A stretch of 64,000 bases of DNA, from the NCBI RefSeq assembly GCF_011745625.1, contig NW_027191474.1, positions 124,001-188,000 on the forward strand, read 5' to 3'. The position numbers were made by a program, and so were the translations under genes. The first letter of the stretch is position 1. Each line of letters begins with the position of its first letter. Below, piece by piece: positions 37,496-63,861 of the stretch. This DNA is from Cladosporium halotolerans (lineage: Eukaryota). The notes below the pieces were generated by a model. That model ran no database searches. It saw only the letters and a list, made by a program, of their open reading frames with translations, and had not been told where the DNA came from.

Positions 37496-37504
37496 TCCAC
37501 CAAT
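37496..37504 (+). promoter_or_regulatory. Putative galacturonate-response element TCCACCAAT
   Basis: Exact TCCNCCAAT match about 240 nt upstream of the esterase ATG. Confidence 0.45.
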
Positions 37505-37745: not shown

Positions 37746-38732
37746 ATGGACAAAGTGCACGGGCTCAAGCCCGACCGGGAGTTCGCCACGATCGTCGCTG
37801 GCCTCGGCGAGAGGGGAGCCATATTGCCGGGTCTGCCGGTTGGCGATGTTGTTGGACGGCGTGAGCGATACGATCTGCGCTCCCAGAAATCGCTCTCCAT
37901 GACACCACCCACGGCCGACGTCGTGCAATGCAGCCACAAGATCCGCAGCAAGGACGGCACCTTCATCGCTCTCGAGGAATTCCGCCCGAAAGGCGCGCCC
38001 GCCAAAGCCTCACCGGCAATCTATCACGTGCACGGCGGCGGAATGATCCTCGGCAGCGTCGCGTCTTTCACTCCCGCGATCTTAGCTAGAGCCAGGAGCT
38101 ACAAGTTACCGATATTCTCGATCGAATATCGACTCGCTCCAGAAAATCCACACCCTGTTCCAGTCAACGACTGCTACGCAGGGCTCGAGTGGCTGTATGA
38201 GAACGCCAGCGGGCTAGGCGTCGATTGCACACGTATCATAGTGCTGGGAGAGAGTGCTGGCGGCGGCCTCGCGGCAGGAATCACCCTCATGGCCCGCGAC
38301 AAGGGTCTTTCGCCTCCGGTGGCATATCAGATGCTCATCTACCCCATGCTCGACGACCGGAACTTGCAGCCTCAGCCGAGCATTGAGGCGCACACCAAAT
38401 GGAGATCGGACGACAACAAGACCGGTTGGGGCGCGTTGCTTGGAGAGGCTGCGGGTCAAGACTGCGAGGTGGCCGGGCACCAATATGCTGCTCCTGCTCG
38501 TGCGCAGGACCTCAGTGGTCTTCCTCCGACGTACATCGATGTTGGTCATCTGGACTTCTTTGCACACGAGGACGTCGAGTATGCTGCCAGACTGCTCGCA
38601 GCAGGCGTTCCGGTGGAATTGCATGTATACCCGGGCTTGCCGCACGATTTCGAAGCCATAGGATCGGGTGCGCGGATTGTCGAACGCACTCTGGAAAACA
38701 GGCTGCGTGTCGTTGAGGAACTTAAGCTTTAA
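37746..38732 (+). CDS. HSL-family alpha/beta hydrolase (esterase), no evident signal peptide
   Basis: HGGG oxyanion motif, YRLAPE, GESAGG nucleophile elbow, catalytic Asp region (LDFF) and PHDF His. Confidence 0.92.
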   Translation: MDKVHGLKPDREFATIVAGLGERGAILPGLPVGDVVGRRERYDLRSQKSLSMTPPTADVVQCSHKIRSKDGTFIALEEFRPKGAPAKASPAIYHVHGGGMILGSVASFTPAILARARSYKLPIFSIEYRLAPENPHPVPVNDCYAGLEWLYENASGLGVDCTRIIVLGESAGGGLAAGITLMARDKGLSPPVAYQMLIYPMLDDRNLQPQPSIEAHTKWRSDDNKTGWGALLGEAAGQDCEVAGHQYAAPARAQDLSGLPPTYIDVGHLDFFAHEDVEYAARLLAAGVPVELHVYPGLPHDFEAIGSGARIVERTLENRLRVVEELKL

Positions 38733-38927
38733 ACATCCAAGGAAACTCCGCGTGTGTAACTTCATAGATGCTACTGCTACCGAAAGAGGGTTGATAGGTC
38801 GATTTTTGGCACATGATCAATGATCGTCTTTCCGTGGCCCAATGTCAGGAAGCTTGCGTAGATGCTGTTGTCTCAGGATGAGCTGACAGAGAGTTTCGAC
38901 CATTTGCACGCGAAGCGCCCCGCGCTC

Positions 38928-41219
38928 TCAAGCATCTCCTTGAAGGCCAGACCATTCCTCCTCTTGCTCTTCTGCTGCCGAATCAACGCGCCCGGGGTTC
39001 TCGTCCCTCACGAGCGAGAGCCGGTCGAAATCGCCCGCGAGCCTCTCCGCTTCGCCGCCGCGGTCCGCCTTTCGCTCGTGGCTCAGATCCATGTACACCC
39101 TCAAGTTCCGAGTTTCCCTCACCTTCTCCCTCCCCTCGCCGTGAAACAGCTGCCTGTACAAGTCCCGCGCTTTACTGCCAGAGAGCTTGCCTTCGGCTAT
39201 AGCCATAGTGAGTATAGCCTTGTACGAGATGGCCGCGAAGGGGTACACGAGCGCGAGTTGACGGTAGGCCTTTAAGCAGATGAGCAAGTAGAAGCGCCAC
39301 TCGGGGTCGACTGGGGAAGCGGTGAGCACGGCGTGCGAGACGGTTATCACGGCGGGGTTCCACCAGGAGTGGTAGCGGGCTTCCGGATAGTGGAGTTGGT
39401 AGAGGATGATGATACGCTTGAGCTGGAGGATAGAGGCGTTGAAGACCGCGGAAGGTGTAGTACAGAGTGTTGCCGAGGCGAGGAGGCGATTCGAGCCTAT
39501 CCAGGGGCGGACGAGCAATATCACGAGGCAGTGGTAGTAGACGCTGAGGAGAGGAGTTAGTCGTATGGTACAGGATGAGACTGGTGCCACCGCGTCATCT
39601 GGCTTACTGCATGTTCATAACATGGTGCGGAGTAACCTCGCTACGGGCGCAACAGCTAGGAAGGTCTGCAGCCCATTGCAAGAGCCGCCCATAGGCCTGC
39701 TCCACGATATGAAAAGGCACTTGGCCTAAAGCTTTAGTGCCAGAGTGGCTTAGTGCACTCTCGGCGATGACGAATAGCTTGCAAAGTGAGGTGAAAGTGC
39801 TGCCCATATACCAAGGTAGATCAAAGCCGTACGTCCCAGGGATCGGAAGCGACAAAGGCGGCTTGGGGAACGGTATTTGATAGACCAGATTAGCAATGCT
39901 AGACTTGTTAGAAAGTGAATCAGAGAATGGATGGAGTACCTCACCAAGTGGAAGTAAAGTAACCCCATCTGGCGTGAGTCTCCCAACGTTGCTCAAGGCT
40001 AGGCAATCTCGAAGACGCGAAGATATTAGATGGTCGAAGCGTTTCTGCCATCTCTTCTGCGAGTTGGGTGAGCCGCCGAGCCTCGAGGTCGATCCCACCG
40101 GTTACACCGGCGTAGTCCATAATCTTTAGCGCCGCCAAATTCATAAAGGTTTCCCGGTTTGTCTCTGCATCCCATAGCTGTGTAGCTGTGGAATAGAACC
40201 TCGCGTGTAAATCCACGGCGGAGGAGTCAAAGATCTCGTATGCTTGCTGAAGAAGTTAGCTTTTGTTTCCATACGAGGGGCGTCAGATCTTACTATCGCG
40301 TATGCAAGAACCGCATTCACAAGAAGGCGCGAGCAAAACCTCTCTCGCTTTCCCACCAAGTCGCCAACAAAGAGGCCTGGGTCGAATAGCGCCATACTCG
40401 GGTGCTCCGTCTGCAGGTAATGAGATATAACTGCAGCAGCGTAACCGCTACTGATTGGGACGTCGGTCCAGTACGAGATATCTAGTTTCTGGAGACGAGG
40501 GTCGCATAAGTACGCCTTCAGCTTCTTCCCCGAGTCTGAGGCACCCAGATCCAGCTTCATTCTGTACCCGGTTAGCGAAAAGACTGATGTATCGGTTTGT
40601 TGAAATACCTCATGATATCTTCCAGTCGGTGCGATCCCGAAGGATTCAAGAGACCTTTAGCGATAGACTGCGGGTTTTCGAATGCCACGATTTTGGGATA
40701 CACCTTGGAGAAGTTCAGTGGCAGGTCGGCCTGCAAATCCGATATTAAGGGAATCAGCGGTGTAGATGGTGGTGGTCGAGCCAATATCCTGGGCTGGGGC
40801 CAATCTGCGTTGAAGCGGTCTGAATCGATGAGATTGACGCCATCGCTGCGGCTCTTGAGAATCGCCAGAGCATCCTCCGCTGGTAGGGATTTAATTTCGT
40901 CGACGAGCTTCTGGTACTCCTGTAATCTCTTCTTCAAGGCCTCGTTCTCACGTCGAACAGCCTTCTGCCTAGTCTCGTCTGCATATCGGGTCGCGTAAAC
41001 GCATTCTACGCCATGCGACCTGCAATGCCTGCATGCTGGTCTCGATGCATCGCACCATATGCCCGTCAGCACCGAGGATTGCTCGAGAAAACCCTTCTTT
41101 ACTCAGGTACATACACCGATTTTTCGAGCTCTGCACTGATCGCAGGCGGCTCGGACTTGGGCTTTTTTTGTCGCTCGCGTGCGGGGCGCATGCCTCGACA
41201 TGCCGCCGCCTGGCTCCAT
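38928..41219 (-). CDS. Zn(II)2Cys6 transcription factor, 6 exons; intron-1 acceptor is non-canonical
   Basis: ACDQCRARKIG joined to CDASRPACRHCRSHGVEC; introns 2-5 are canonical and keep the frame; intron 1 (41055-41114) ends in GG. Confidence 0.8.
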
Positions 41220-41866
41220 GGTGCGAAAGAGTAAGTATGGTGTCACTGGCGGGCCGTAAACGCCATGGCACAAGCCTGAAGCTCTTCAAGATGACTGCGG
41301 GCTTGCCCGAAATGTGTTTGTGGCAAGCAGGGATAGCATGAGCACGGCTGTCTATGTATCAACGTCCGGCAAGCCTGGAGCAGATGTTCGGTGCGCGGGT
41401 GGCGTGACAGGGAACCTACAGTATCTCTGCCGACCGCCGATGTCTTCCCCGTTTTTGATGAGGGCGCCGAGCGCGCAAATCTGGCGGGTTGTCCGGACTT
41501 GCCTCCGCCGCCTCTCGGCAGGCATTTGCTCCATGGGTAATGGCGTGACGAGCGACGATGTAATCGATCCGCACCGACAGATCGAGACCATCACCTCTTA
41601 TTACTCGGGTCTTAGAGCACGTCCTGGAATTGCAGCGTCGAGGCAGGTAGATCGGACGTCCTACAGGCCAATTGATTTCCGTACTCCCTCCTATAGCGAC
41701 GATGAAATAAGGCTCACCCTTCCCGGCTTGGTATACAGGACTCCAGTCCTTAGGACCCTTCACACCATAGTGGCAACCCCCTTCTATCCGGGTGTTCCCA
41801 ACGATGGCGGAAATGATGGGTGGTTTGGAATCTAAGGATGGAGTGGCCAGCAAAAAGACAAAAAAA

Positions 41867-41985
41867 ACATACAACAGGCGGGATTCCCAGATGGTCACCC
41901 ACTCTAGTACTAGTCGCCCGGTTCAGTGCTTATGTATGGCAGAGCGGACGGGATGCCCAGTTTTCACTGACCTGTGGTCGTATGT
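41867..41985 (-). rRNA. 5S rRNA gene, copy 2 (identical to copy 1)
   Basis: Same 119-nt sequence; T-run terminator; TATA-like TCATAGA at -29 to -23 (42008-42014). Confidence 0.96.
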
Positions 41986-42936
41986 GTTTGGTATGCGCTA
42001 GCTAAAATCTATGAATGCTTATCATCAGGCGCATGAGCAAGAACGCTCTCCCCAAATCGAGGGTCTACTTGATCATACGCAACATCTCGTTTTTCTTTTG
42101 GAAGATACGACTATATCAAAGAGGATTCGCACAATCATGGATGATAAGCTCGACGATTGCTTCTTACTGCCCGACGATGCTGAGCTTTAGCACGATGGCG
42201 CAGTTTGATGAGCTCAGCTGCGAGAAGAGGCGCTGCGGCATTCCTTCTCGTAGGCGAGAGGTGGAAGCGAGAGGTGATCTCTATCGAACGGTCATTATGT
42301 CCAGCGTGAAAATCGCTGAGACTTGTCTTCGATGTCGGTGTTTATCACGGCAAATGTGTGGCGCTGACCTGAGCACCCTTACTTGCCTTCACTATACACG
42401 CATCACCTCAGGTCCGAATGGACCGCAGCAAGCGAGACTCCGGGAAGATCTTTGCGCCGCGTAAATGCGAAAAGAAACAGGCTATTTACAGACTCTTTGA
42501 TCATTCGCGAAGAATTTTGGCTGATTGAAGGGACGCTAGATGCATGCCATTGAGTTCTTTGGGTGACAGATTCCCCTCGTCCACAAGAGAACAGCAACCC
42601 CGCGCATTGAAGCTTCCTCCAACGACACCTCAAATTCTTCCGTCAATCAAACAATTTGCGGCACTATGTCTTGCTTAGACGAATGTGGGCTTCTGTACAG
42701 GCAGTCAGGTGCTCTCAGTTCGCTGATGATGCGACTAGAAAAGCGATGACGATATTACGGAGACCTGTGAAGTACCTTGCGGGCATGCGGGGTCGGGTTA
42801 TTGCAGCTATAAGAGCAGTGTCTGGCCCAGTATCACCAGAGAAGTAGTTGAACTTTTACGGGCCTAAGAGTTTACACTGATAGACGACTGAGCTTACTCT
42901 TCGTTACAATCTCTAAGCACATCAGGCCTCACCTTC

Positions 42937-44409
42937 ATGTGGGTGTTCAGAGTCTTGCTGTTGGCCGTCTTACGCCATGCTGTTGCTTTAGAAGGTCCAG
43001 TCGGCCGCCTGCCCGCCATGGGCTACAACAGCTTCAATGCATTCCAGTGCAACTACAACGCCTCACTGCTAGAAGCCCAAGCTAAGGTCCTTCACGAACG
43101 AGGTCTTGTCGCTGCCGGCTACAATATCCTCACCCTGGACGACTGCTACGCCCTTGAAGAAACGCAACGCCACTGGGCACATGGTCGACGACCCTGCAAA
43201 GTTCCCAGAGGGAATAGCAGCTTTCTCACAAAGTGTGCATCCTTATGGCATGCGGCTTGCAGCGTACGGAGACAACGGGTACAAAACCTGTGCTGGGCAC
43301 CCTGGCTCTTACGGTCGTGAGTTGCAAGACCTGGAGACTTGGTACTCGTGGGGAATGACCTACTTGAAGTACGACAACTGCTGTGAGTAAGCATGCCGAT
43401 TACTTCACCGGGTCGAAGACTGACAAATCGAGCAGACATACCGGCCGACAATATAACTCAGGACAGCATGTTCGGCCGCTTCACGCGCATGTCAGACGCT
43501 ATCGCTGAGTTTGCGGCTCGCACGAACGTCACTTTCCAGTATTCGCTCTGCCAGTGGGGTTGGAACCAGCCTTGGGTCTGGGGCCGAAGGATCGCTCAAT
43601 CCTGGCGCAACACGGGCGACATCAAGCCGTACTGGGACGCGCTCGCTGCCATCATCAACACGGCATCATTTCATTCGGAAGCTGCCAATTTCTTCGGGCA
43701 CAACGATCTGGACTTGCTGGAAGTCGGAAATACCGGGCAGGGCACTCCGCCTGGAAACCTGACATACGACGAAGCGAAGAGCCATTTCACCGCTTGGGCG
43801 CTTCTGAAGTCGCCTCTGTTCATCAGTACCGATCTCCGGAACGCTTCCGAGGAGACCTTTGAGATTCTGGGAAACAGAGACATCATCAAAATCAACCAGG
43901 ACCCTGTGGTAGGCGAGAGCGTCACGCCGTTCCGGTGGGGCGTTAACGAGAACTACGCCTACAACGCCACCCACCCTGCCGAGTACTGGTCTGGCAACTC
44001 GAGCTACGGTGTCAGCTTCATGATTCTGAATAGTCTCAACTCACCACAGCAGATGTCCTTCAATCTTACGGAGAGCTGGGCTATACGCACTGGAAGACAG
44101 TACTCGGTGTACGACATGTGGCAGCACAAGGTGACTGGAATAGCTGTGAGGTAAGCACGTAGTCTGAGTGTACGCAGAGACTTGCGACGCCTGCTGAAAT
44201 CTCTCACCAGGAACATGACAATCGATCTGCCGCCACGTGGAGTCGCTGCGCTTCTGTTGAACGACGACGGTCCAGAGCCTGAGTCGCTGAATGGGACTTG
44301 CGCTCTCTATTACCAGTGCTCGGTGAGTGTAGCGTAGTCCCTATTATTCCGGTACTTCCTACTGACATTATACTACTAGTGGCCCAATGGCACATACATT
44401 TCAAACTGA
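42937..44409 (+). CDS. GH27 alpha-galactosidase-like enzyme, secreted, 4 exons; apparent +1 frameshift at 43151-43153
   Basis: Motifs LPAMGYNSFN, LDDCY, YLKYDNC, SWRNTGDI, NDLDLLEVGN and HFTAWALLKSPL; introns 43383-43435, 44151-44210 and 44323-44379. Confidence 0.88.
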
Positions 44410-44621
44410 AAAGTGACTGTGTCGAAAGCGTCGGTGACAAAACGGGATGTACAAGCTTTTCTGCATCTCGTGTCGTTAGATAACGACCGCCTTACGGAAT
44501 TAGTGTCGGTTATTACATCAATCCCCGCCAAATCCGTGTACGCTCATCATTAAAATCTTCCATACAGCTGTTCGGAGTGTTCATGGGTGTTGCTTGGAAA
44601 ATTGCGACGGCTCCTCCAACA

Positions 44622-47600
44622 TCACAACCACTTCGTCTCCGGCGGCCCCAGGTACGAAGCAGGTGCCGGCCGCCCATACTCCAGCACGATCTTTTCAAGG
44701 TAAAGCTCCGGCGAGTCCGTCCCGAACCGCAGCGTATGCTTGCCCGGCTGTACTTCGCCTAGCACGGCCGTTCGTTTCCAGACTCCTTCTGCGACTGAAG
44801 TCGTCCAATCGTCAGGCAGCTCGCCGACTGCTGAGGGCTCGAGAAGGAGCCGGGTCATGGTGGGGTTAGTCGATGGATCGTCGAGAGTGAGGGAGTAGTG
44901 CATTGGCAGGTTGGGGTCGGTGTCAAGAGCGCTGTTGATGTATAGGGTGGAGTTGAGTTGGTCCGTGGCGTTGCCGAACAGGAAGATATCGTATTCTACC
45001 CATGCGTGATGAGAGGCGGAGGGATTGCCTCGGGCTTCGTGGTAGGGCCGTAGTGCGATTGATCCAGAGTTGCTGCGGGAACCGAGATGCGGTATGTGTT
45101 GAAAGGAGACCGAGCTATTGCTATTGGCTGATGATGAGCGTTGGAAGTGAGAGCCTTCGATGGAGATCACGCCGCCAGCGTCGGGGAAGCCTGTAAAGCC
45201 TTCGGGGACTTTGTTATTGAAGACCGTCAGTCTCAAGTTGTCGAACGAAGGTTCGGGCTCCCAGTTGATGCGAACGTCAAACTCCTCCTGGAATCCCTCG
45301 GGCACACGGCTCCAGTCGACAGTGATGTTGATGCGCTGCTCAAGCTGCTCGGAATACACCGTGCCGGAAGTGAGAGAGAATTGCAGCCATACATAAGGCA
45401 CATCGGCGGACCATGCAATACTCTTGCGGCTGTCGCCACGATGGAACAGATCAACAGTCACAAAGTCAGGCCCGTACGGTGTGATCACAGGCAGGACCGG
45501 CTTGAAGCCTTTCTCCGTGGGAAACGCCGGGTCAATAGACGCGCAGATCCTCCCTTGCCGCGCAGCACTCAAGGATCCTTGGGCGTAGATTCCGAGATTA
45601 CCAAAGCCGTAGTCGAAGTCCTGCCGAGTCTGCACGTACGAGATATTTGGCAGGACGTCTTTTGACGGAGGTATCCAACTCACGCTGCCGATGTCAAACT
45701 TGGGCGTGGACATTATGCCTGCCCATTTTCCGCCGGCAACCTGATCGTATTTGAGCACGAGATCCCAGTCCATGCCGAACTCGTCGAGAATGTCGGTAGC
45801 TACCTGATTTGCAGAGTTTCGTCGTTCGGTGGCGAACTGGTAATTGAGAGCGGTTTTGATCTGGATAGAATGGTAGTTCGCACCAGCTACAGATGGGTAG
45901 ACGGCGTGGTAATAGAAGGGATCTCGACGGTCAGCCGGCAGGCGTGAATGTACAGATTTGGCGCGCCCCGCAAGATCTGTCCATGCCTGCAAGACACGTT
46001 CAGCTTCGTGGTAGTTCATGATGGAGTACGTGTTCGGCAGAGTAATCTCAAATTTGCGTAGACCGACCAGATGGCTGTAATCGAACAACACTCTCGAGGC
46101 TTCTCCTGCTAGATCAGGCCCAAAGTCCCTTTGCGAAAGCGTGACGAGCCATTTCGGGATTGTGTCAAAGTCGACTGCGGAAGCGTTCCAGGCTACGGTC
46201 ATTGCAAGCTCGAATGGCAACTCAAGACTTTTGATGTCTCCAACATTGAAGATCCAGATCTGGTTCGCCCCTCGTTCGTGAGCGTGATGAAGATCCTTGT
46301 ACAATTTTGGCTGGAGACTGTGTCAGTAGGGTCCTAGCTGTTACCATATAGATCGATCGCACTGACCAAATTGTTTGTGTTCATCCATTTGTAGCTTTTC
46401 GGACGGCCAACGTAGCTGAGATGGTGGTATAGCTGCTTAAAGTCAGGAAACTCCTCTAATGCGATCTCGAACGACTTCTACTCACACCAAATCCTCCTGA
46501 CCTGTCGCCGTCCTCTGCTGCAGGAAGGCGTCTGATGTTCCCCCAATTGTCGTCCGCAAACATTATGGTCACATCAGAAGGAGGCTTTAAGCCTGCCTCA
46601 TAGTACGCTTGTACCTCCTTGTAAACCGTCCAGACCTCTGAGGCCAAGTCAGCGTTGACACCGCATCCAAGGAACACAAACCAATCTTACGTCTCGTGTC
46701 CGAAGCATTGCCATGATGCTTCGCGATCAAACCCCTCTGAGCCGCAATAATATCTTCAAGGATCGCCGCGGGATCGTCGCCATTGATCGGCCCGTCGTTC
46801 TCGCCTCGCATGCCCAATGTGAAATAGGACTCGTTGTTCCCAGCTCGGATCACCCCTTCCTCCATAAAGTTCAGGACTTTCTCCCTGTTCGTGACAAAAT
46901 TCCACGGCCCATCGCTCCCGTTTTTCTTCTGCCATTCGTTAGAAGCCCGCTGCATCGGCTCGTGGTGGCTCGTTGAAACCACGATGCCGTAGTCGTGTGC
47001 CAGTTGCTGGTTCTTCGGGTCATCCGTGAAGAAGATGCGGCCAGGCTTGGGGACGAATGATCCCCACATGGCCGGCCAGATGAAGTTGCCCTTAAGGCGG
47101 ACTATGAGGTCGAAGACGTGGGTGTAGAACTCAGAGTCGAAGGTGTAGTCGGACACGTTGTGCCTTCTCGCCCACCAGCCCGTGAGAGCTGGCGCCTCGT
47201 CGTTGATGAAAAGCCCTCTGTACTTGACGGAGGGCTCGCCGTGGGTGGTTTTGTGAGGCAAGGCATAGATCTCTTCATGCTTGGTAGCGGGAACGTCTGA
47301 CCAGAAGTGGAGCCTGGGCTGTCAGTGACGGATTGTATGGTTGTATAGCAGTCAAGATGCACTCACGGCGACTGCCCACTTTGCTCAGCTAACGTGTAAA
47401 CGCCAAAGGCCGTGCCTCGTTTATCACTGCCAGCAATGACAAGAGCCCTGTCAACTCCAATCAAAGGATCAGAAACCACCGTTGTGGTAAACTTCTCCCA
47501 CTTCCCGTCAAGATCAGAGACGTCGATTTTGCCCCTGTGAACAAGCTCAATAATCAAAGCAGAGTCGACCGTGCCGACGATGATGGCTTCGGCTGCAGAT

Positions 47601-50052: not shown

Positions 50053-51362
50053 TTAAGCAACCTCCTCAACCATCTTCCCGCCCCCCGAAGCAACCTTGAC
50101 AGCACCCCCGAAGACATCTCCAAGAGGGCTGTCGAGCCACTCGTCAGGGACGGCGACGATGCTGCCCTGCTTGTTGTTGACCCAGCGGGAGTAGAGCGGG
50201 TTGGCCCTGGGCCCGCCGTTCTCGTCTTCCTCGCCGGGGGTCATTTCGGCGGCTTGCTGGGCGGCGATCATTTCGGCGCGGGTGCGGCGTTTGGGGGCGG
50301 GTTTGCTGAGGAGCTTGTTGATTGTTTCCATCTGTGGAGAGTTAATATGTGAGAATTGGGAAAAGTCGATTTGGAATGCATTGTTAGTGAAGGAAAACGC
50401 ACCTTCTCCTCCTCGTTGCGCTTCTCGCTGAGGTTCTTGCGTCGGCGTGCCATTTCCTGTCGGCGCATGGCGTGCTCTTCTACAGACAAGAGTTTCTTCT
50501 TTTGCGCTTCGTTCGAGAGAGCCAATAGTCCAACGTTCTCTTCTTCGTACGCGCCTCGTTGTCTGCGGGTGAGCTTGGTGATGTCTGGCGTGGCGGAGCG
50601 AGAACCGTCGATATCGGATCCGGAAAGGTCGTCGTCGTCCTCGCCCATCTCCTCATCTTCGTCGCCCTCTCCGAGTTCCTCGCCTTCGTCTCCTGATTCC
50701 AGATCCGACAGCTCCTCGTCGTCCTCGTCGGCTTCCTCCAGCTCCTTCGCCTCGACAGACTTCAACGTCCCCGCCGAAGGAGCAGAGACTCTCACACTCG
50801 GCTTGCCCTTCGCAGTCGCCTTCCCGCGCTTGATGACCGGCGGCGGAGGATGGCTGTCCTGCAGCTCGTCCATGTCCTCGTCCTCGCCCTCGGCATCATC
50901 CTGGCTGTCCTCATTCGCCAGCAACTCCTGATCCACCTCCTCGCCCTCGGCATCTTCGTCCTCGTCCTCACCCTCCGCATCCTCCTCTTCCTCCTCCTCC
51001 TCGTCCTCCTCCTCGTCACTATCCTGCTCAACGAACGTCCTGGGATTGCGCGTCGCGCGCGCAGAGCGCACGGCCGGCTTGGGCGTGGCGTCGCTCTCGC
51101 TCGCGTCGTCGGCGGACGGCGACTGGGAGCCCGACAGGGCCTGGCGCAGCTTGGACGGCGCGGCTTTGACGGTCAGCTTCAACGATGAGGCGTTGTTCGC
51201 GCCCGCCGCGCGGGTCACCGAGGCCGCGGGCGGGGCGCGGGGAGGGGGTTTGGGGCGGGAGGGACTACCACTGCGCGTCGTGTTAGCCCTTGCGTACGGT
51301 TGTGCGGCCTCGCGGGCGGCGGAGGTGGGCGCGGCGCGGTTGGAGCGGCGGGTGGGAGGCAT
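50053..51362 (-). CDS. IES2: INO80 complex subunit Ies2 (PAPA-1 domain), 2 exons
   Basis: Acidic linker; TPDITKLTRRQR; AMRRQEMARRRKNLSEKRNEEEK joined to METINKLL across intron 50332-50402. Confidence 0.9.
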
Positions 51363-52129
51363 TGCGGGTGGAGGTGGTGGAGGTGGAGGTGAGGCTGGAA
51401 TTGGTGGTGGTGGTAATGGATGATGTCGGACGGCGGCTCTTGGGTCAGGCGAGCCGGCTGTCGCGCGCGAGCCCTGATGCGCTGCGCCGCGCCTTCCTTG
51501 CCACAGCGTCGGATCGCGGTCGCTTCAGCCCGGTGTGTCCATCCACGCCGCCGCCATGCAATCCTTCCCCTCGCCGCTCCCCGCCCGCCTGCGCGACCCG
51601 ATAAGGTGTTAAGGTAGCAAGGCAGCGACGGCCACGTGACGCGGCGGCGCCCGTTGGACGGCGTCGCGCACTCTCGAGGCAGGCTGCGCTGCGCTGCGCT
51701 GCGTTGGGTTTGGCTGAAATGCACCTACCGAGCGGGAGGAGGCTGATACTGTGGCAGCGCTGTTGCGCCGCCGCCTGCAGATGTTCGCGACACGCTGATC
51801 GGCGAGCCCGACGACGACTTCAGCCGTTTGGCGCTTTCGTAGCTCATTGTCGCGCGCGCGTGGGTGTGTGAGGATGGTATGGAAAAATACAGGGAGAATA
51901 TGTGGCGGGAAAGATGGTGCTGTAATCCTCACTGCAAGGGAGTATGGAAGCTCCAACGGCTCTGAGGCCTGTGATTCGGATGCCTGAGGCACTCAGCGAC
52001 GTCGCTCGTGGCTCTCAGTTGCCGAGGCTCGTTCACATGCGCGACTTCAGCGTTGCCGACGTGTGCGACTTGAATGCTGCGATCGCATTCTGTGTTCCAA
52101 CACCATAATACCTTGACACTCACGCCAGT

Positions 52130-53320: not shown

Positions 53321-54334
53321 TGGGGAGCTCGGTATGAGGATGATTAGGGATTGGTCACATGATGGATTCCATGAGCGCAGCACCGCCGAAGACGGCTGCT
53401 GCGTCTGACTGTTCGGGGTACTAGGAGGCTGGAGACGCCGAGGTCGAGAAGACTGTGCAGGGCCACTCCTTGACCTTGCAGCATGGAGGGCAAGCTCATC
53501 GTAGCACTACGACGGTACAGTCGCCAGCGACCGCGCAGGTCGAGTAGACGGTCTGCTAGCGCTGCAGTCGCTCTTAGCCCGGACGGCCGTATGCTCACTG
53601 GGCGCGACCTTGATCGACGTTGCAGGCGCAGCGAAGACAGATAAGTCATACACCCAATTTGACGAATGAATAGTAATGACCCAAGCGTCTCTCTTCCTCA
53701 ACAATGGCTCCCAACATGTTCCAAATCGAATCAGTGCCCATTCTAGCCCCCCAAGCCCACCCACCCAAAGAAGCCGTGAGCGCACCCTGCGCAGCCATCG
53801 ATCGAAACCGCAGGCAAAGGAAAACCACATATCTGATCTGGCGAACGAAGATGTAACGAGTCAAGCTCACTCTCCGTCTCCTCACCGCCTCATACCCCAT
53901 TACACAACGCCTCCCTGCCCATGCTCACCCCAAAAGCCCACCCAGCTCCGACGCTGTGAGGTCAAAATAAAGGTCGGACACCCGTTAGCGCCCGCGCACT
54001 ATCCCGCATCCGGCAACTGCGCGAGGGGCGACGGCGAGGTCCCGCTATCAGAACGCTCGGGCCTCGCCCCGTTGCCTGGGATGGGCTTGTTTGCGGGCGC
54101 TTGGACGCGCGGGGCGCGTGAAGTGAGGTTGTGGGGAGCGCGGGGTCGTGCCTTCCTTTTGAGCGCATGTGATTTTTGTTGTTCCTGCTCAGGTGGCGGC
54201 GTATTCACTCACTCACTCCCCTTCTTCGACTTCTTCAGTTCGAGACTGGCTGGTGTCGCTCCCTCTCGCGATCCCCTGCGCGCCTTTTCACAACCCCTTC
54301 ACTCACCACACTGCGCACCTCTTCTGCTGCAGTC

Positions 54335-55943
54335 ATGGCAAAAACCAAAGGCAAGAAACCGCAGAACGTGAGCGATACCTCTGGCTGGACCCACGAGTAC
54401 GTGCGCAGGATCCTGCGCCACGACAACCTGGGCCAGAACTTCTTCACGAGCGTCTTCGGTTGGACTGGCGAAGACTTCGAGGCCGCCGTCGCAGAGGCGA
54501 ACAGCGCAATGCACAAGTGGAAGGTCAAGCCCCGGCAGATCGTCAGGCACCCCGTCTCTATCGGTGCGAAGAGCACCGGGAAGCAAGACAACAGCGAAGC
54601 CGCGCGCAAGCGGCTTGAAAAAGCTGATCGCAAAGGCAACGGCCTCGAGAAGCTGCTCACTGGGCACCACTCTTATTTCAAGCTCCCGCATGAGCGGAAA
54701 TTTGAAGCGCCGCCTAAATGGTTCGACCCGACAATGACTCTCAACGGGCGGGTTGCTGGAGTGCAGTATGATTTCCCGACTATTGTGCAGAAGTTCTTGC
54801 CTTTTGCGTATGAGAGAGAGAAGAAGAGGGGGAATACTGAGAAGAACGCTGCATCTGGCCATGCGACTGCCGCTGGGAAGGTGTCTTCTTCACAGCAGAA
54901 GCCAGCGTTGCCACCGACGCTATGGGATGTCGCTGGTCAAAAGCGGCAGCTCCCTCTTGATGACGAGGCGGCATCCGCTGACTTTGACGGCAACAATGCC
55001 AAGCGCCGCAAGCTGCGTGCAGATGATAGTGATGTCGTAGCGGACATTGACTTCACCCTCGACGACGACGACGACGCCTACGAGCCTCAACTTGCTCTCA
55101 ACGACAACGACACCGCTACTGCGCCCCTCGACTGGCCATCCAACAACCGCACGCACGACAACATCAACACAGACGAAGAGCCAACCCTCTACCACTTTCC
55201 CCCTCACCAGCTCACCAACGTCGAATTGCACATCGGCTGGCTCACCGCCCAAGAAGACGGCACCCTAATTGTAGAGAAAGGCTTCCGCTCCCTCAACACC
55301 TGGCTCGAAAGCGCGAACCCGCTGCGCTACAACGACGACATCATCAAAGAAAGCCTGCGCATTGGGTGGGACTCCGGGTTGCAGATCTTCTGGTTTGACG
55401 ATTACAATCTTGAGCCTTGGGTTGCGGCTGACGTCCATGCGCTTGCGGGCGCGATCGATAGGGTGTCGAGGAAGGCGGACGAGGTCTGCTTGTTTGTTGC
55501 GAGGAGTGCTGGGGTCGTGGGCAGTTTGCCTGTTGAGCAGAGAAGTAGGCGTCAACGCTTTGATGCATGTGCGAACATCGACTGACGCACTCGCAGAGCT
55601 GCAAAACCAGACCGAGCAGACCATCGTCCTCATGCCCGTCGCCGCAGGGTCTCCGGGTTCTGCCACCAAGCTCGTTCGCGCGTCCGGCGAGTCCCCTGAT
55701 GGCCCGCGCACCGTTCGCCATGGAAACAAGCACTACTTGATCCCTGGCATCTCCGTCAGTCTGGCGAAGAAGCTAGGCGAAGCAGTAATGAAGTCACGCA
55801 TTTCGTACGAGTACCGTGACGAAAGCGGCAAGAACGATTCTGACCAGGGCGGTGGTGAGGGTGGTGAGGTTGGGAAGCATGGTGACGATGATGGCGTTGA
55901 CGAAGAGGAGAAATCCGTTGACGAGGAAAAGGACTACCCTTGA
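54335..55943 (+). CDS. Hypothetical protein, 2 exons
   Basis: Long ORF from ATG 54335; intron 55545-55596 (GTAGGC...CTGAC...CAG) continues the frame to 55943; KRRK basic patch; no recognised domain. Confidence 0.7.
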
Positions 55944-56366: not shown

Positions 56367-57308
56367 TCAAACAACAGACCGACTAGCCTGCACAACCCAA
56401 TCGTAAACCGTAAAAGTGATCGAACTGCTAAACGTAAGCCTAACCAACCTCGGCGTCGTCGCCTTCCAAAACACGCCCACGCCCTCTGAAGCCAGCATCT
56501 TCCGCGCGCAAGCCAGCATCCCGCTCCCTCCAGCGCCTTGAGTCTGCACGCGCGTCTTGATGTTGTCGAACGGCATGCTGGCGTACACCGTTATCACGCC
56601 ACTGCCGGCGCCCGCAGCGAAAGTGACGACTGACGGACTCGCGTTGGCTCGAATAGTGTCTGATTTCTTGAGCAGGTCGCCCAGAGCGCTGAAAGTCGAG
56701 AAGCGCACGGCGCTGTTCGTGCCTTGCTTGCAGACGACGGGCGCCAGGCCTCGCCAGAATGACAAGATGCCTTCTTGGCGGAGCATCTTGGCGACGAGTC
56801 GGGGTGCGGAGAATGTCGTTCCTTTTGCTTGGGCGGTGGCTGTTGCGTTGACGATGCGGGTTTTGACTGCTTCGCCGGGCGTGACGACTAGGATGCTCTC
56901 GAGGATGCCAGCGCAGAGGCCGGCATATACGCTCAGGAGAGGGCTGGATACGAGCCCAGGGAACAGACGTGGAAGATTAGATCGTGCGGTTTCGAACCCG
57001 AGGAACCGGATACCTGACTTGGCCATGTTGCTGGCCGCCAGCGCTCCGCAGCCAGAGTAGAGTCCTCTGATGCCGGACGTTGCCAATGTTTCGCGGACAA
57101 TGGCAAGAGAGGAGAGGGATTTTGTCGCTGGTAATTGTCGACGAGTCTTGATGTACTCTACGGGATACTATGAGGACGTGTCAGAAGGCCTGTGGTTGCA
57201 CACTTTGACTGACTTCTTCAAATCGTGGAAGCTCACTGTCACTAAAGTCTCGCATCCACCTGCTGCTGCTCCAGCAGCTATACTTGTAGCAACAGAGGGT
57301 TTGCTCAT
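56367..57308 (-). CDS. Mitochondrial carrier, citrate/tricarboxylate (Ctp1-like) type, 2 exons
   Basis: Three carrier signatures (PVEYIKTR, PGEAVKTR, PFDNIKTR); KSGIRF, KQGTNSAVRF and PRLVR contact motifs; intron 57168-57236. Confidence 0.88.
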
Positions 57309-58068
57309 ATTGGGTTCTGCTTCAAGGATCCAATGTCGTATGAGAGAATGCTTGAACGAGAGGATCAGCCGCAGTTGGCGATTTGATAAGAAAATGGGAT
57401 ACAATGCGTTGCCTACTACTCTTCAAAGGAGAGTATCTCCATACTTACTATCTCAGCTCTGGCCTGAGCGCCGCATGTCGGCGCAAGACGCTCTCAACCG
57501 CAGCATGCACTGTCAAGTATCCAAGATCTTGGTGCAAAGAGAGCCGGGACTGTCAGCAACGGAGCTTGACCGAGAAACATTCGCGTCTGTGCTCGATATA
57601 AGATGGTACTCCACTTCGGCACGCTGGAGCCGGTCAGCATCGCAATCGGAAGATGACCGAGATGTAAACAGGCTGTGTTCAGCTCGAGACACAATAGCAG
57701 TTCGAGTCGTTGAGTTTCTTGAACCTGCGTCGGTAAAATGTGAATCCGCGGGGCAGTGCACTTCCAAGGAACGCATCACGCCGCAATTGGAAACGCGATA
57801 TGGGAACTACGGAACGGATACCTTGAAGCATCATCGGAATGAGTACGCTGATTCCCGCGTAGACTCATATCATCGGCGCTGGCACAAGACTTTCTGCAAT
57901 TTATGTTACAGCAATCAAATTCGAGAACGCGAGCACTCAATATCAACGAGATCAACGAAGATAGTACCTTAAATATATTATCATCAATACGCTGATCTAG
58001 CAATAGTCATGTGTATATCGTAATGATTCTAATGCACAGCCTCCCTCCAAGTAATTCCAAGAATCCGC

Positions 58069-59088
58069 CTAGTCGCAGATATCCCAAAGGCTCTTGGCGT
58101 TGGTTGAAAAGACCTTCTCAACGCTGCCAGCCTCTGCCGCCCATTCCAAGCACCTCTCCTCAAAAGGCTTGATATCAAGACCCTCGAAACGGGTGTGCGG
58201 CCAATCGCTGGCAAACACAGCCCGGTCGCTCCGAACGCGGAGGATTTCCTTCGCAACAACTTCCAGCTGAGAGCTCTCGAGCTCGACACGGTACGGCGCG
58301 GAAAATTTGACGTAAGTGTTGCCTTGCTCGAGCAGATCGATCAGAGACTGGAATCCCGTGATCGAGTAAGGGTTGAAAGGCATCGTCGAGTTGTCTGAAG
58401 GCTTCGACGGCTGTGCGAAGTGATCGAAGCACACTTTGACTCCGAGCCCGTCGATGGTCGACTGAAGGCCTGGGAGCAAGTCCATCGACATGTAGATCTG
58501 CAGCATCCAACCGAGCGGCTTGATGATCGCTGCGTACTTGACAATCTCGCTTCTCAGCACCTCGATGTCTGGTGTCTTTTCGGTTGATGCAAGATTGAGG
58601 CGAACACCGCGCACACCGAGACTGTGCCATTCGACGAGAGTGTTGTTGTCAATGTTGGTCGCGTTGAAGACGACGACACCCCGCGAACGATCAGGGCCGA
58701 GTGCTCTGATGGCGTCGAGCAAAGCGCTGTTGTCGAAGCCGTAGATGGATGGCTGAACGACGACGATATTCTTCATGTTGATGGTATTCTCGAAGGTAAC
58801 AGCATCCCAGACAGAGTGAGCTGATGGCGTATATACGGCATCTGCGGATAGCGGATACCGCTCTGGGTCGATGATGTGCATGTGGCCATCCCAGCCATCG
58901 GTGGGAATGCTGGCGTTGGATTCTTGAAGGCCACGAGAATACTTCTTCGGGCCTTCAATCGCGGCCGGTTTTGCTGATGCTCCAGAGAAAAGAACAGCAG
59001 CACGCACCTCGCTGCTGGTAAGGAAGAAGAGGCTGAGAAACGAGTGGTTCACCGTCCTGAAGAGGTGATTTAAAGTTGCGGCGAGCAT
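58069..59088 (-). CDS. Amidohydrolase_2 (LigI/COG3618 lactonase-like) protein with an N-terminal extension
   Basis: Motifs DGHMH, VQPSIYGFDN, GVRGVRLN, DHF, YVKFSAPYR and ASDWPHT. Confidence 0.88.
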   Translation of the reverse strand: MLAATLNHLFRTVNHSFLSLFFLTSSEVRAAVLFSGASAKPAAIEGPKKYSRGLQESNASIPTDGWDGHMHIIDPERYPLSADAVYTPSAHSVWDAVTFENTINMKNIVVVQPSIYGFDNSALLDAIRALGPDRSRGVVVFNATNIDNNTLVEWHSLGVRGVRLNLASTEKTPDIEVLRSEIVKYAAIIKPLGWMLQIYMSMDLLPGLQSTIDGLGVKVCFDHFAQPSKPSDNSTMPFNPYSITGFQSLIDLLEQGNTYVKFSAPYRVELESSQLEVVAKEILRVRSDRAVFASDWPHTRFEGLDIKPFEERCLEWAAEAGSVEKVFSTNAKSLWDICD

Positions 59089-59649
59089 CTTGCTGAATTG
59101 ATTATCGTAAGATCGTGACAGAGCAAGTTTGTGGTACTTGTGTCGATTTCCAGAAAGAGTCTGGAGATGCGAACTGCCGTTCCAGTTTCTCGCAACCAGT
59201 GTCGACCTCGTGCTTAAGAGGCCCTCAAAAGGCCCGAGTCGCCCTACTCCACCTGGCAGACCTTGGTGGAGCCGCGACCGGACAACTTGTGCCGGCCGTC
59301 GACATCGCTGCACGCTCATATCCGGCACTGGAGCATGCCATGTCTTGTTAGCCTAAGTTGCCACAATACTCACCCAGGTGGGAAGTCAGTTCGGAACTTG
59401 ACCGAATGAGTGGGCCGTGCGGAGGACAAGCAGACTCGTGACGCCGAGACGGACGATGACCGAGCGCGCAAACTCCACCTCATCTTTCTCCCCGCATGGC
59501 TTCTCCAGAGATTGTGGGGATGGGGTTATTCATCATACCGTGATCGGATTGAACGGCACGTCGAAAGCGAAGGCGTTCAATACAAATATCACGTCGAGGT
59601 CGGCGTGAGGAACACGGTCTGACTGTCAAAAACAAACACCTCGACGAAC

Positions 59650-61488
59650 ATGGGTAAAACGCCTGCATATTACTACATTGCGCTTGCCTGCATTGCATGT
59701 GCAGGCATACCGAAAGGTGAATAAACACCCCACTCGGTCTTCACGATCGTCAAGCTGACCATTGAGATCAGGCTACGATGAAGGAGGCTTTTCTGCGAGC
59801 ACAAAACTGCCATCGTTCGTCCAAGACTTCAACCTGGTGAAAGCGAACTGGGAAGGCCGGGCATCGGAATTGGCAGATCGAAAGGCCAACATCTCATCCT
59901 TCGGTGTGTTGGGAGCAGCATTTGGATCGCTCATAGCAATCTTCCTCAATGACCGAATCGGCAGGCTGCGTACGTACCAGCTGGCCATTTGCGTCTGGGG
60001 CGCGGGCATTCTCATGCAGATCTTCTCGTCGGGAATCTATGGATTTATGCTGTTTGCGAGGATCTTTGGAGGTCTTGGAGCAGGCTCTTTGACCGTCACT
60101 GCGCCCCTCTTTCTAGCCGAGATCGCCACGGCAAAGAGGCGTGGTCTGATGGTCAGCTTGTACATGGTCGTGTTGCTGACGTTCTTGACGCTCGGTGAGT
60201 AGCCATGGGCGCAAGATACCAAGTTCCTGTACTGACTCCCGTTTAGGCTTCTTCATCAACTACGGCGCTGAAAAACACATGGCATCGAACCGCACTCAAT
60301 ACCGCCTCGTGCAGGGAATTCCTCTGATCCCGACGGGGATCGCATTCATCTGCTCATGGTGGATGAGCGACACACCTCGCTGGCTTGCATCTCAAGACCG
60401 ATACGACGAAGCGCTCGCATCTCTTGCACGCCTTCGCGGGTCCGACATGAACGACAACACCGTCCGGGAAGAGTTCGAGCAGATTGAGGCGCAGAGGCGG
60501 CAGAAGCTTGCGGACCTTTCTGGCACGTCGCTGTGGAATGTGTTGAAAGAGATTGTGACGGTGCCTACGTACCGCAGTCGCTTCCTTCTTGTGATGACCA
60601 TGCAGACCATCGCACAGTGGTCTGGCGGCAATGGAATTACAGTGAGTACGCCGAATAAGTGCACACCTCAGGGCATGAACTGACAGCTTCGCAGTACGTA
60701 AGTCGATTTCCGCGGAGAATATCTCTTTCGTCACCTCATGGAGTCGAAAGCTCGCGATTCAAAGACAAAAGCGCTAGACCGCTCAAACGCACACGCTGAC
60801 CGTCGTCCTCTCACAGTACATCCCCGAAATCTTCCAGTACGCCGGCATCGACGGAGAATCCAGCTCGCTGATCTCCTCCGGCGCGTACGGCATCGTAAAG
60901 CTCGTCTTCACCATGGTCTTCGCCTGGGGCCTGATCGACATCATCGGACGCCGGCGCTGCTTCCTGGCCGGTCTCTTTCTGCAACTTGCTGCCCACATCT
61001 ACATGGCCGTCTACATGTCGTACCAGCCCGGCGTCGCGAGCAACAAGTCCGCCTCGGATGCCGCGATCGCGTCGGTCTTCATCTACGCGGTCGGATGGTC
61101 CATCGGCCTGTGCACTGTCCAGTACCTGTACGGAACGGAAGTGTTCCCGACGAGGATCCGCAGCGTCAGCTACGCTTCCAGCATGGCGCTGCATTGGTTC
61201 TTCCAGTTTGCCGTCGTGAGGGTGACGCCGAACATGTTCGTCAGCCTTGACGTGTGGGGAGCGTACATTTTCTGGGCTCTCATCTGCGGCTGCGGCATCG
61301 TCATTCTCGGTCTTTGGGCTCCGGAGACGAAGGGTGTGCCGATGGAGCGCATGGGCGAGCTGTTCAGTGGCCATTGGTGGATGGGATGGAGGGCAAAGCT
61401 CGGCTCTGAAAGTCTCGAGGAGCTCGTGCGGGAGGGTAAGGTCAGCGAGGAGAACGTGACCACGGACACTCGCGTGGAGCGAGTATAG
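59650..61488 (+). CDS. MFS sugar-porter-family transporter (quinate-permease-like), includes a 3-nt exon
   Basis: Motifs GYDEGG, DRIGR, DTPRWL, QWSGGNGIT-Y-YIPEIF, DIIGRR, EVFPTRIR and PETKG. Confidence 0.9.
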
Positions 61489-61678
61489 ATCATTTTGATA
61501 GATCGTAGACATGGAAATTCCTTCTTAGCAAGAAAAAGACAAATCATTCTTGCGAGTATTACTGAGTTATAATCGTACTCATTGCTCCTGTCGCCAAGAC
61601 GTGGTTGCTGAGTTTGCACATGGTCTTCCAAATTGATTAAATACTCACTGAGAGCAATTTTCAATGCCGGAGTCGGCT

Positions 61679-63861
61679 CTAGTACCAGGGCTTATCCAAA
61701 TCGATATCAAACCCAGCGTTGACATTCGCCGAGATGGGCTCCAGCTCTGGAAGCAAGTTGAAGAAGTCCGGAGGTATCTCGAGAGCGTTGAAGTCCGGAA
61801 CGGCGAAGGCATCGTAATTGCTTGTCCAAGCTTGTTCCGATGCTAGATTGCCAGCCGGTTGGTCTTTGGCTTGCTCCTGTTGGTGTTGTAATGAGCTGGT
61901 CAGGTGGTGGGAGCCGTCTGGTTCTCGGGATATCAATTTCGTGTCTAGATGTTGCAGCTCTCTATAGATGAGCGCTAAGGCTGAGGTGATGACTGGCAAG
62001 AATGGTCAGCTTAGCAGGCATATTTGCTACATAGCCAAGCTTACTAGGGCTGGTCACTTTGATCCTCTCCAGCGTCTCGACACAAAATTTGAGGCTGTCC
62101 ATGGCTTGAGAAGTGAAGTCTCTCGTAGCTTGCACTTGAAGCAAGAAGACAGATGCTGCGATGTAGACTGCATACGCCTGAGATGTAATAACATGGCCGT
62201 GACCGAAGGACCTTGTGAAAAAGCTGAAAAGTACAAGGATAGCGTTGGCAGCTTCGAGACATTGCCGGAGGTGATGTCCGCTCTGCGAATCGCTAGCCTC
62301 TTCGTGCTTGCCGTAAGTCGTGAGCAAGGGTCTATGCAGGAGTATCCGTGTAGTATGATATAGGAGGCTGTGCCATGTTAGTTGAGATGTCTGGCAGGCT
62401 GCCCAAACTAGTATGCTCACTTCAAGGTTACAATGTGGCTCGGCGGGCACTGCGTGGGCAGTGACTGAACCGATATTGTGAGATGAGCCGGAAGTCGTTC
62501 ATGCCATGTCGCAAGCCTTCTCTCTTCGTCAAAAGCGCATTTGGCCACCTCTGCAAGAGTGCTCTCTTTCACCGGATTGTACATCGTGACCAATACAGCG
62601 TTCAAGATCTTGGACAGAGCGCATGTATTAATGAAACAGGATGTGGTATGGGCCTGCATTGGCGGATAGTTGTCAACGTAAGATTGATCCAGCCCTTGTG
62701 GTACCCACGTTTCGATCTCTCCAGTATCATCCAACACGTGAAGCGGTGGACTTTCCGAAGTCTCGTGTAGCGCCGGCAGCCGACCCAGATAGAGTGAGAT
62801 TATTTTGTCCCAAAAGTAGCACGACCAGAAGAGACGATTTCGGATCTCGATTTCCTCAACAGAGAGTTGAACGGTCTTTGCGTATTTCCGCCCGTCAAAA
62901 ATGATACCCAAATCGACAATCAGTCTGAAGGCCATGCCACTGTAGAGCCACGCTTGAGAGAGATTGCCTGCGCCGCATTCCTGGGCACTGAGTAGTAGCA
63001 AGGCCTGTACTGTAGGAATGGAAGGAGCGCCAGTTTGCAGAGCGGTCATGAGATCAGCTCGCGCCTGACGGCCAAAGTACGCACCGCCTTCGAAGGGTTC
63101 CAGGAGAGGTAGGATACGCTCGTTTGCCTTAGCCCATCTCACAGAGTGTGCGAGAACAGCATTCAGCAGTAAGACCGAGCAATACGGGCCATTACTTTGT
63201 AAATCACGGGTAAAGGTAGGCCGGTAGACGAAATTGAAGACAGGCTGTATCCAGCACCAGTGGAGATCCAAGAGGATTTGTATTACCTCGGGTAGATTAG
63301 ACAACTTTTCGAGAGCACGCTCCGTCCAGGCACTGTTGATGAGTTCCTGCTTCGCCTGCTCGGGATTATGCTCCGAGCCAGATGCTGCAGCATAATGGTC
63401 ATTGGGTCCTGCAACACCCAAATTCATGAAGCTAGTACGGCCATGGAACGAGATGTGACCACCATCGCGCCTGGTCAGACTGGGCAAGTTCCTCGATGAC
63501 TCTGAGCGTTCGTCTACCGGGGATTGAACGGATCCACTTTGCTCAGAGCCAGGCGACTGATTTGGCAGACCTTGAGCTTTCGCCAGAGCCGTCTCAAGCT
63601 CCGATATACGACTTTCTAGCCTTTGAATGTGGGACAAAGATGGTGCTCTAGACCGATACCGTTAGAATGCGAATGGGGTACAGCCATTGAATCTTCTTAC
63701 AATTTATAGACACACGAATGGTCGCCTCTAGCCAAGCAACGAGCACAAATGGGATGGCCTCCATCGCATTTGACCTTTCTGCGCCGACATGATTCACAGG
63801 AGAATGCGCTCTTTTTACGGATACCGCCGTCTGGGACCGGAGGGCTGCTTGGCGGTGCCAT
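61679..63861 (-). CDS. Zn(II)2Cys6 transcription factor with a fungal TF middle domain (NirA-like), 4 exons
   Basis: ATG at 63861; CESCRRRKVKCDGGHPICARCLARGDHSC; AWLYSGMAFRL and RNRLFWSCYFWDKIISLYLGR; canonical introns. Confidence 0.92.

Follow-up and report, generated by a model that had tools for sequence, protein, structure and literature searches.

The 64,000-nucleotide stretch of Cladosporium halotolerans DNA analyzed here (assembly GCF_011745625.1, contig NW_027191474.1, positions 124,001 to 188,000; hereafter the window) carries at positions 56367–63861 four adjacent genes, which we treat as one module. They encode a mitochondrial carrier, a LigI-like amidohydrolase of COG3618, a transporter of the major facilitator superfamily (MFS) and a Zn2Cys6 regulator. 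Genes were called from stop-to-stop frames and Pfam scans, after which gene models were built from the window DNA; the four adjacent genes are located exactly where a preliminary description of this DNA had placed them. The carrier gene (56367..57308, minus strand) has exons 57308–57237 and 57167–56367, separated by an intron at 57236–57168, and encodes 290 amino acids (aa). The hydrolase gene (58069..59088, minus strand) is a single exon without an intron and encodes 339 aa. The sugar-porter MFS gene lies on the plus strand (59650..61488; exons 59650–59716, 59772–60194, 60247–60641, 60695–60697 and 60817–61488) and encodes 519 aa, and the regulator gene is again on the minus strand (61679..63861; exons 63861–63701, 63647–62421, 62367–62045 and 61992–61679). 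The outer ends of the module are the carrier stop codon at 56367 and the regulator ATG at 63861.

The hydrolase ATG at 59088 and the MFS ATG at 59650 are divergent, and the 561 bp between them (59089..59649), previously given as about 560 bp, form a bidirectional promoter with sites of the type CGG-N7-CCG at 59391–59406 and 59449–59464. The carrier promoter holds such sites at 57559–57574 and 57646–57661 (57559..57661, minus strand). The regulator gene is convergent with the MFS gene, with the two stop codons 190 bp apart.

The carrier model is identical to the public protein P0422, and the hydrolase model to the public protein P0418. The hydrolase is covered by contigs, and the MFS and regulator genes by spliced ones; in contigs of runs X3 and X7 the joints of every MFS intron and of the three regulator introns were seen, with all three regulator joints present in one X3 contig. 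The contig depth of these runs does not rank expression levels. The carrier intron is absent from the contigs and is taken from the identity with P0422. Between two short introns of the MFS gene lies a 3-nt micro-exon (60695–60697; TAC, one tyrosine), which is confirmed by a spliced X7 contig carrying TAC between 60641 and 60817. The matching tyrosine is present in the intronless orthologue of the related locus L001 (...GITYYIPEIF...), while the public 518-aa MFS model P0242 skips the micro-exon and is one residue short. A C. halotolerans protein matches the last MFS exon at 100% identity, so the window comes from this species or a very close relative.

Upstream of the hydrolase ATG (59089–59352) the reading frame remains open for 88 codons, with an in-frame ATG at 59319, and the stretch so added is arginine-rich. 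Longer hydrolase forms are used by the 414-aa database member P0419 and by the open reading frame of L001. We set a start at 59319 aside: the public 339-aa protein starts at 59088, and the X7 and X1 contigs end near 59138 and 59093, respectively, which is a weak hint.

Judged by locus tags, the layout recurs in four classes of Pezizomycotina. In Cladosporium fusiforme (002528/29/30), Zasmidium cellare (62325/26/27) and a Teratosphaeriaceae species (002073/74/75) the tags of carrier, hydrolase and MFS follow one another directly, and in Cadophora sp. M221 (Leotiomycetes) they are 007284, 007287 and 007288, respectively. The hydrolase adjoins the MFS gene in Aspergillus wentii, Rasamsonia emersonii, Elasticomyces and A. 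niger. In A. ustus the carrier HK57_00152 and the MFS HK57_00150 have tags two apart, and carrier and MFS share a contig in Helotiales, Xylariales, Glomerellales and Hypocreales.

Linkage was also counted in 80 metagenome loci around relatives of the hydrolase, which were searched with the four window proteins; 63 loci remained after removal of near-duplicates. An MFS gene is divergent from the hydrolase in 16 of the 30 non-redundant loci with at least 2.5 kb upstream, namely in 16 of 26 where hydrolase identity is at least 43% and in none of the 4 below 43%. Ten MFS-linked loci extend at least 2.5 kb downstream, and 4 of them have a carrier (L002, L015, L016, L020). When only the 17 loci with both flanks are considered, the MFS gene is found in 10, the regulator in 8, the carrier in 4, and none of these in 7. 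The MFS proteins of distant loci are 58–68% identical to that of the window, as against 43–49% for the hydrolases.

The regulator contains a Zn_clus domain (PF00172, E 2.9e-10) and a Fungal_trans domain (PF04082, E 7e-32). In the 8 of 17 both-flank loci where its relatives are linked to the hydrolase, and in the wider set of loci, three positions occur: tail-to-tail with the MFS gene, which holds for most loci and for the window; past the carrier in L020 and L024; and directly after the hydrolase in L030, L033, L035, L036, L048 and L049. Because the regulator stays linked through such rearrangement, the linkage appears to be selected. The genes flanking the module are unrelated and differ by locus, according to Pfam scans that covered 140 flanking frames from 8 long loci; they include kinesin, Pam17, alcohol dehydrogenase, DnaJ, RPA43, heme lyase, mevalonate-diphosphate decarboxylase, Sec23, a DEAD helicase and Ydc2. 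It follows that regulator, MFS and hydrolase make up the unit, which the carrier frequently joins as a fourth gene. The same scans gave no second conserved pathway enzyme beside the module, so any later enzymes would be unlinked. The cluster had been suspected to continue past the end of the window. This is probably not the case, since related loci have unrelated and variable housekeeping genes beyond the regulator, and the cluster most likely ends at the regulator.

The promoters tie the genes together further. CGG-N7-CCG occurs in all 21 non-redundant MFS/hydrolase intergenic regions, the window included, against about 4.3 expected from shuffles, and the 8-mer CTCGGTCA is found in 17 of the 21 (null maximum 6). 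The consensus of the 36 best sites is yTCGGTCAACTTCCGw. The pattern TCGGTCANNNNCCG matches the 64-kb window 4 times, versus 0.24 expected, and every match lies in one of the two promoters of the module: 59392–59405 and 59450–59463 in the bidirectional promoter, and 57560–57573 and 57647–57660 upstream of the carrier. The bare CGG-N7-CCG is not enriched window-wide (19 matches versus 27 expected). A core match at 12210–12222, with CGG, the consensus 7-bp spacer and CCG, is probably due to chance; it lies inside a 1224-codon frame (9431–13105), lacks the flanking consensus and scores below 14 bits.

A motif matrix was built from the bidirectional promoters alone, with the carrier promoters left out. 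It gives 85 sites of at least 16 bits in 724 kb of loci versus 5 in shuffled DNA, and the sites lie nearly all between MFS and hydrolase or between hydrolase and carrier. The carrier-promoter sites of the window score 20.0 and 24.8 bits, and 10 of 11 non-redundant carrier promoters contain a site, compared with a mean of 0.015 in 200 shuffles. As the carrier promoters carry the element of the MFS/hydrolase promoters, co-regulation of the carrier with these two genes is supported in cis. The element is also present in some regulator promoters (L042, L030) and at some hydrolases without a neighboring MFS gene (L026, L029, L031). Dimers of Zn2Cys6 proteins usually bind inverted CGG triplets.

A co-regulated fungal catabolic cluster is expected to show conserved co-location and a shared cis-element, and both are present here. 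Synteny and motif bear out the earlier proposal of a conserved, apparently co-regulated cluster with a COG3618 LigI-like hydrolase, a transporter and a dedicated regulator: the genes are linked in other fungi, and a common element stands in cis, carrier promoters included. That the four genes are merely unrelated neighbors by chance would suit the 7 of 17 both-flank loci in which a hydrolase stands alone amid housekeeping genes. It is nevertheless contradicted by the adjacency conserved in four classes, by a regulator that is linked despite three different positions and by a promoter motif far above chance, and we regard it as extremely improbable.

The hydrolase is a member of Amidohydro_2 (PF04909, E 1.9e-25). 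A sequence search of solved structures matched it to LigI (E 6e-19), the 2-pyrone-4,6-dicarboxylate (PDC) hydrolase of Sphingomonas paucimobilis (4D8L, 4DI8), and to the putative PDC hydrolases 2FFI and 4I6K, to which a family profile adds 4MUP. The AlphaFold model has a mean predicted local distance difference test score (pLDDT) of 83.2, exceeding 90 for 213 residues of the barrel; the TIM barrel starts at about residue 62. Fold comparison ranks LigI first (E 7e-20, template modeling score 0.67–0.79), followed by 2FFI, 4I6K, 4MUP and the COG3618 lactonase 4DLF/4DO7, whereas decarboxylases and PtmU3 trail at E 1e-8 or weaker. Matches in the ESM Atlas are 'amidohydrolase' clusters only.

The HxH motif after strand 1 (H69 and H71), the later H223 and the strand-8 D295 do not vary among 16 fungal sequences and align to His31, His33, His180 and Asp248, the catalytic His/His/His/Asp of LigI. 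Y86, R163, Y199 and R267 are likewise kept in 16 fungal sequences and align to Tyr49, Arg124, Tyr156 and Arg217 of LigI; together with Arg130 we take these to be the carboxylate-binding residues of LigI. The full carboxylate-binding set expected of a LigI orthologue, i.e., a PDC hydrolase, is broken in the fungal proteins at the position aligned to Arg130. While the fungal hydrolase shares with LigI the fold, the branch of COG3618 and the aligned His/His/His/Asp, it is only 22–23% identical, begins with a basic stretch of about 60 aa that LigI lacks, loses this one aligned arginine and has the extra invariant residues H91 and E100. Its context also differs, as LigI belongs to an aromatic meta-cleavage operon and the fungal hydrolase to a transporter–regulator module. 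Against NF042924, the equivalog model of 4-sulfomuconolactone hydrolase, the protein scores 76.9 bits, with a curated cut-off of 500.

A second relative is Atu3138 of Agrobacterium tumefaciens (4MUP), which we take to be a galactarolactone isomerase. It has the COG3618 fold and was found by both the family profile (E 6e-10) and the fold search, but it is bacterial, 18% identical to the fungal hydrolase and isomerizes a lactone. Judged from these comparisons, the hydrolase is a member of the LigI branch of COG3618 and an orthologue of no characterized enzyme, and the reaction it catalyzes would be the hydrolysis of a lactone. An amidohydrolase-related dinuclear oxygenase, as in PMC10811679, was also considered and set aside: PtmU3 is 35th in the fold search (E 1.5e-6), neither sequence search of solved structures gave a chain named oxygenase, and Pfam scans of the neighboring genes turned up no Rieske domain.

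Since LigI is the best match in both sequence and fold, the module might degrade PDC as LigI does and form a fungal arm of gallate or protocatechuate meta-cleavage, with the carrier moving the tricarboxylate product. Ring opening of PDC gives a tricarboxylate, which suits a tricarboxylate-type carrier, and the residues aligned to Tyr49, Arg124, Tyr156 and Arg217 are conserved, with the roles we presume for them. We nevertheless consider this quite improbable. The low identity to LigI and the missing arginine argue against it, and no hydratase or aldolase of the pathway and no ring-cleavage dioxygenase stands beside the module in any locus examined. In A. niger, the top induced genes that the text of PMC10512348 names for the tannic and gallic acid regulon have other gene numbers.

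Residues 1–60 of the hydrolase precede the barrel and form a presequence-like extension, modeled as a low-confidence helix (residues 2–21) followed by a disordered linker. At least 40 residues stand before the WDxHxH motif in 84 of the 120 best relatives. In the extension of these 84, acidic residues are scarce (3.7%, as against 12.7% of the mature part) and Arg/Lys and Ser/Thr abundant, and its net charge is at least +2 in 66 of them. This composition resembles that of a mitochondrial presequence and suggests that the enzyme may reside in the matrix. The order of events first proposed, in which the lactone is opened and the acid then imported, becomes doubtful, because the extension looks like a presequence rather than a secretion signal in most relatives. 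In a subgroup (P0044, P0048, P0050, P0051, P0058, P0064, P0071, P0075 and P0081; 52–55% identical) a signal-peptide-like start and an NAT sequon take the place of the basic extension, which suggests that this branch of the family is secreted or lumenal.

The carrier has three Mito_carr repeats (E 2e-47) with the Px[DE]xx[KR] signatures PVEYIK, PGEAVK and PFDNIK. We placed it in a quick maximum-likelihood tree of 97 carriers, in which all cluster-linked carriers fall into one clade of 41 rows (Shimodaira–Hasegawa-like approximate likelihood-ratio test, SH-aLRT, 100; stem 0.84) covering Dothideomycetes, Eurotiomycetes, Leotiomycetes and Sordariomycetes. The sister is a small clade with 'Tricarboxylate transporter alt9', and the next clade holds a 'tricarboxylate transporter' of Pyricularia oryzae, a carrier of many Hortaea werneckii strains and an Aspergillus protein. 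The latter clade is likely that of the housekeeping citrate carrier. In this quick tree the module carrier is in a clade separate from it and so does not group as an orthologue of the housekeeping CTP1. That the carrier might simply be CTP1 had been raised as an objection; the clade of its own, the presence at 4 of 10 informative loci and the cluster motif in the promoter all speak otherwise. Like ALT9 of a toxin cluster (and presumably FUM11), the module carrier is a cluster-encoded CTP-like paralogue, but it is separated from ALT9 by the strongly supported stem of its own clade and has other partner genes.

Aspergillus carriers among the matches listed come from A. puulaauensis, A. recurvatus, A. 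ustus, A. pseudoustus and A. keveii. These being five species among the matches listed, a patchy distribution of the carrier within Aspergillus is suggested. The basic pore residues of the canonical clade (K74, R78, K171, R179, K228, R264 and R267) are all kept, and six positions are fixed differently between the module clade and the canonical carrier clade. The carrier should therefore still move di- or tricarboxylates, on the basis of the retained basic residues, and with altered specificity, on the basis of the six positions.

The MFS protein matches Sugar_tr (PF00083) on its three large exons, spanning profile positions 12–452, and databases name it 'quinate transporter'. Its orthologue in A. 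niger is An01g10970, which the literature lists as down in RacA mutants. Expression of An01g10970 is low and flat (54–275 units) on 22 sugars and plant polysaccharides, among them galacturonate, rhamnose, xylose, arabinose, pectin and xylan (PMC5968117, supplement file 4). Owing to this flat profile, the usual plant sugars are unlikely substrates of the MFS protein. According to PMC12610400, the quinate permeases of A. niger are qupA, in a cluster on chromosome 8, and qupB (NRRL3_05631). An01g10970 lies outside the chromosome 8 cluster of qupA, judged by gene number alone. Its NRRL3 number presumably differs from that of qupB, and by gene numbers only it is probably neither quinate permease, so that quinate, too, is probably an unlikely substrate.

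The wider surroundings of the module include a group of plant cell-wall genes at 33379–47321, 10–25 kb away. It contains a polygalacturonase of glycoside hydrolase family 28 (GH28), a second sugar transporter, an alpha/beta-hydrolase esterase, a Zn_clus frame, an alpha-galactosidase and a GH115 alpha-glucuronidase. Housekeeping genes for a RING finger protein, PAPA-1 and Pex14 stand between this group and the module, and the region of the PAPA-1-like gene has a G+C peak of 0.716 (51000–51499) compared with 0.48–0.64 around it. Between Pex14 and the carrier lies a 470-codon frame (54173–55585) without a Pfam match and without a motif site. The syntenic locus L002 has a similar-sized Pfam-less frame in this position, and the frame is absent in more distant loci.

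The sugar-porter type of the MFS protein and its 'quinate transporter' label would suit a cytosolic pathway for a sugar acid, of the L-rhamnono-, L-fucono- or galactaro-lactone type, in which the MFS protein imports the sugar or sugar acid and the carrier serves a later step only. Sugar lactonases and a galactarolactone isomerase do belong to COG3618, the fold search matched 4MUP and 4DLF/4DO7, and the GH28, GH115 and alpha-galactosidase genes for pectin and xylan enzymes are in the same window. Such a pathway is unlikely in our view, since the module has no conserved dehydrogenase, dehydratase or aldolase next to it, An01g10970 is uninduced on rhamnose, galacturonate, pectin and xylan, and it is probably neither qupA nor qupB, if gene numbers and our presumed NRRL3 mapping hold. 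In addition, sugar lactonases rank below LigI-type proteins and are absent from the sequence-search matches, and Pex14, PAPA-1 and other housekeeping genes separate the carbohydrate-active enzyme genes from the module.

The itaconate clusters of Aspergillus terreus and Ustilago maydis contain a mitochondrial tricarboxylate carrier, an MFS transporter, a regulator and enzymes. The likeness to them noted earlier holds for the layout, as a citrate-type carrier, an MFS transporter and a pathway regulator are encoded side by side; it fails for the chemistry, as neither cis-aconitate decarboxylase nor any other biosynthetic enzyme accompanies them. Pfam scans of the window pieces and 8 related loci gave no cis-aconitate decarboxylase and no aconitate isomerase/decarboxylase. 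The enzyme of the module is instead a lactone hydrolase, its MFS protein is a sugar porter, and the direction is likely catabolic. An itaconate-like biosynthesis, with the carrier exporting an acid of the tricarboxylic acid (TCA) cycle, the LigI-like enzyme closing a ring and the MFS protein exporting the product, would agree with the set of carrier, MFS protein, regulator and one enzyme that we associate with itaconate clusters, with the toxin-cluster 'Tricarboxylate transporter alt9' in the nearest sister clade of the carrier and with LigI catalysis, which we presume to be reversible. It is made improbable by a sugar porter of PF00083, a family that consists mostly of importers, in place of an exporter of the drug/H+ antiporter type, by the apparent presequence of the hydrolase, by the lack of a decarboxylase or synthase in the module and the scanned related loci, and by the very wide occurrence of the module, including in fungi not known for acid overproduction.

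The reading that we prefer, and which we hold to be somewhat probable, is that the module is a transcriptionally self-contained catabolic unit for an exogenous anionic lactone or a related hydroxy-carboxylic acid. The Zn2Cys6 regulator, probably as a dimer, would bind inverted CGG triplets spaced 7 bp apart in both promoters and switch on MFS, hydrolase and carrier together in response to one compound. The sugar-porter MFS protein would import the compound across the plasma membrane, and the citrate-carrier-like paralogue would carry this compound, or the product of its ring opening, through the inner mitochondrial membrane. The presequence-bearing LigI-like hydrolase would then open the lactone to a di- or tricarboxylate for central metabolism. 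The compound is expected to be anionic because the hydrolase has LigI-type binding residues and the carrier is of the tricarboxylate type. Uptake would probably precede ring opening, as the hydrolase looks mitochondrial, and we infer that transport is directed into the cell and into the mitochondria.

Lactones of tricarboxylic acids fit all parts, and isocitrate, hydroxycitrate and homocitrate lactones as well as PDC are candidates. A narrower version, which we put forward tentatively and as rather doubtful, is that a tricarboxylic-acid lactone is imported, carried into mitochondria and opened in the matrix, so that a single step, with its own carrier and a CGG-N7-CCG regulon, feeds the TCA cycle.

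Several observations weigh against the proposed catabolic unit. Sugar-porter MFS proteins carry mostly neutral sugars, and the expression of An01g10970 described above is flat. The position of the fungal hydrolase family aligned to LigI Arg130 varies (K, Q, T or others). A carrier is missing in 6 of the 10 informative MFS-linked loci, so that mitochondrial entry by a dedicated carrier is not essential to the module. The 7 of 17 both-flank loci in which the hydrolase relative has no partners and stands amid housekeeping genes mean that the family may also have a housekeeping role. Fewer than 40 aa precede the HxH motif in 18 of the 120 relatives, some relatives lack the extension altogether, and the subgroup around P0044 starts with a signal-peptide-like sequence. 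Lastly, binding of CGG-N7-CCG by the module regulator is a prediction from motif type and linkage.

The preliminary description could match the genes to no described pathway, and in the full-text literature, beyond which lie subscription journals and some supplements, we likewise found no description of the cluster, the motif or the members. The nearest parallels among nutrient clusters are the fungal quinate (qut/qa) clusters, which are also small, serve inducible nutrient use and have a sugar-porter permease and their own regulator. The module differs from them in having no activator/repressor pair and no dehydrogenase or dehydratase genes, and in including a mitochondrial carrier, an unusual member of a catabolic cluster. 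Small fungal catabolic clusters with their own regulator are already known; it is the mitochondrial carrier and the LigI-type enzyme that make this module unusual.

Clusters of a regulator plus a permease show which nutrients fungi are built to use. The present module is kept in four classes of the Pezizomycotina, including Aspergillus, Penicillium, Colletotrichum, Trichoderma and black yeasts, and its members are annotated merely as hypothetical protein, 'TIM-barrel hydrolase' or 'quinate transporter'. With its cis-element defined, its gene models clean and a set of orthologous loci at hand, it can be tested directly. Should the hydrolase prove mitochondrial and the carrier its partner, the module would be a rare catabolic cluster with its own mitochondrial import step, and a function would be assigned to a fungal branch of the LigI family.

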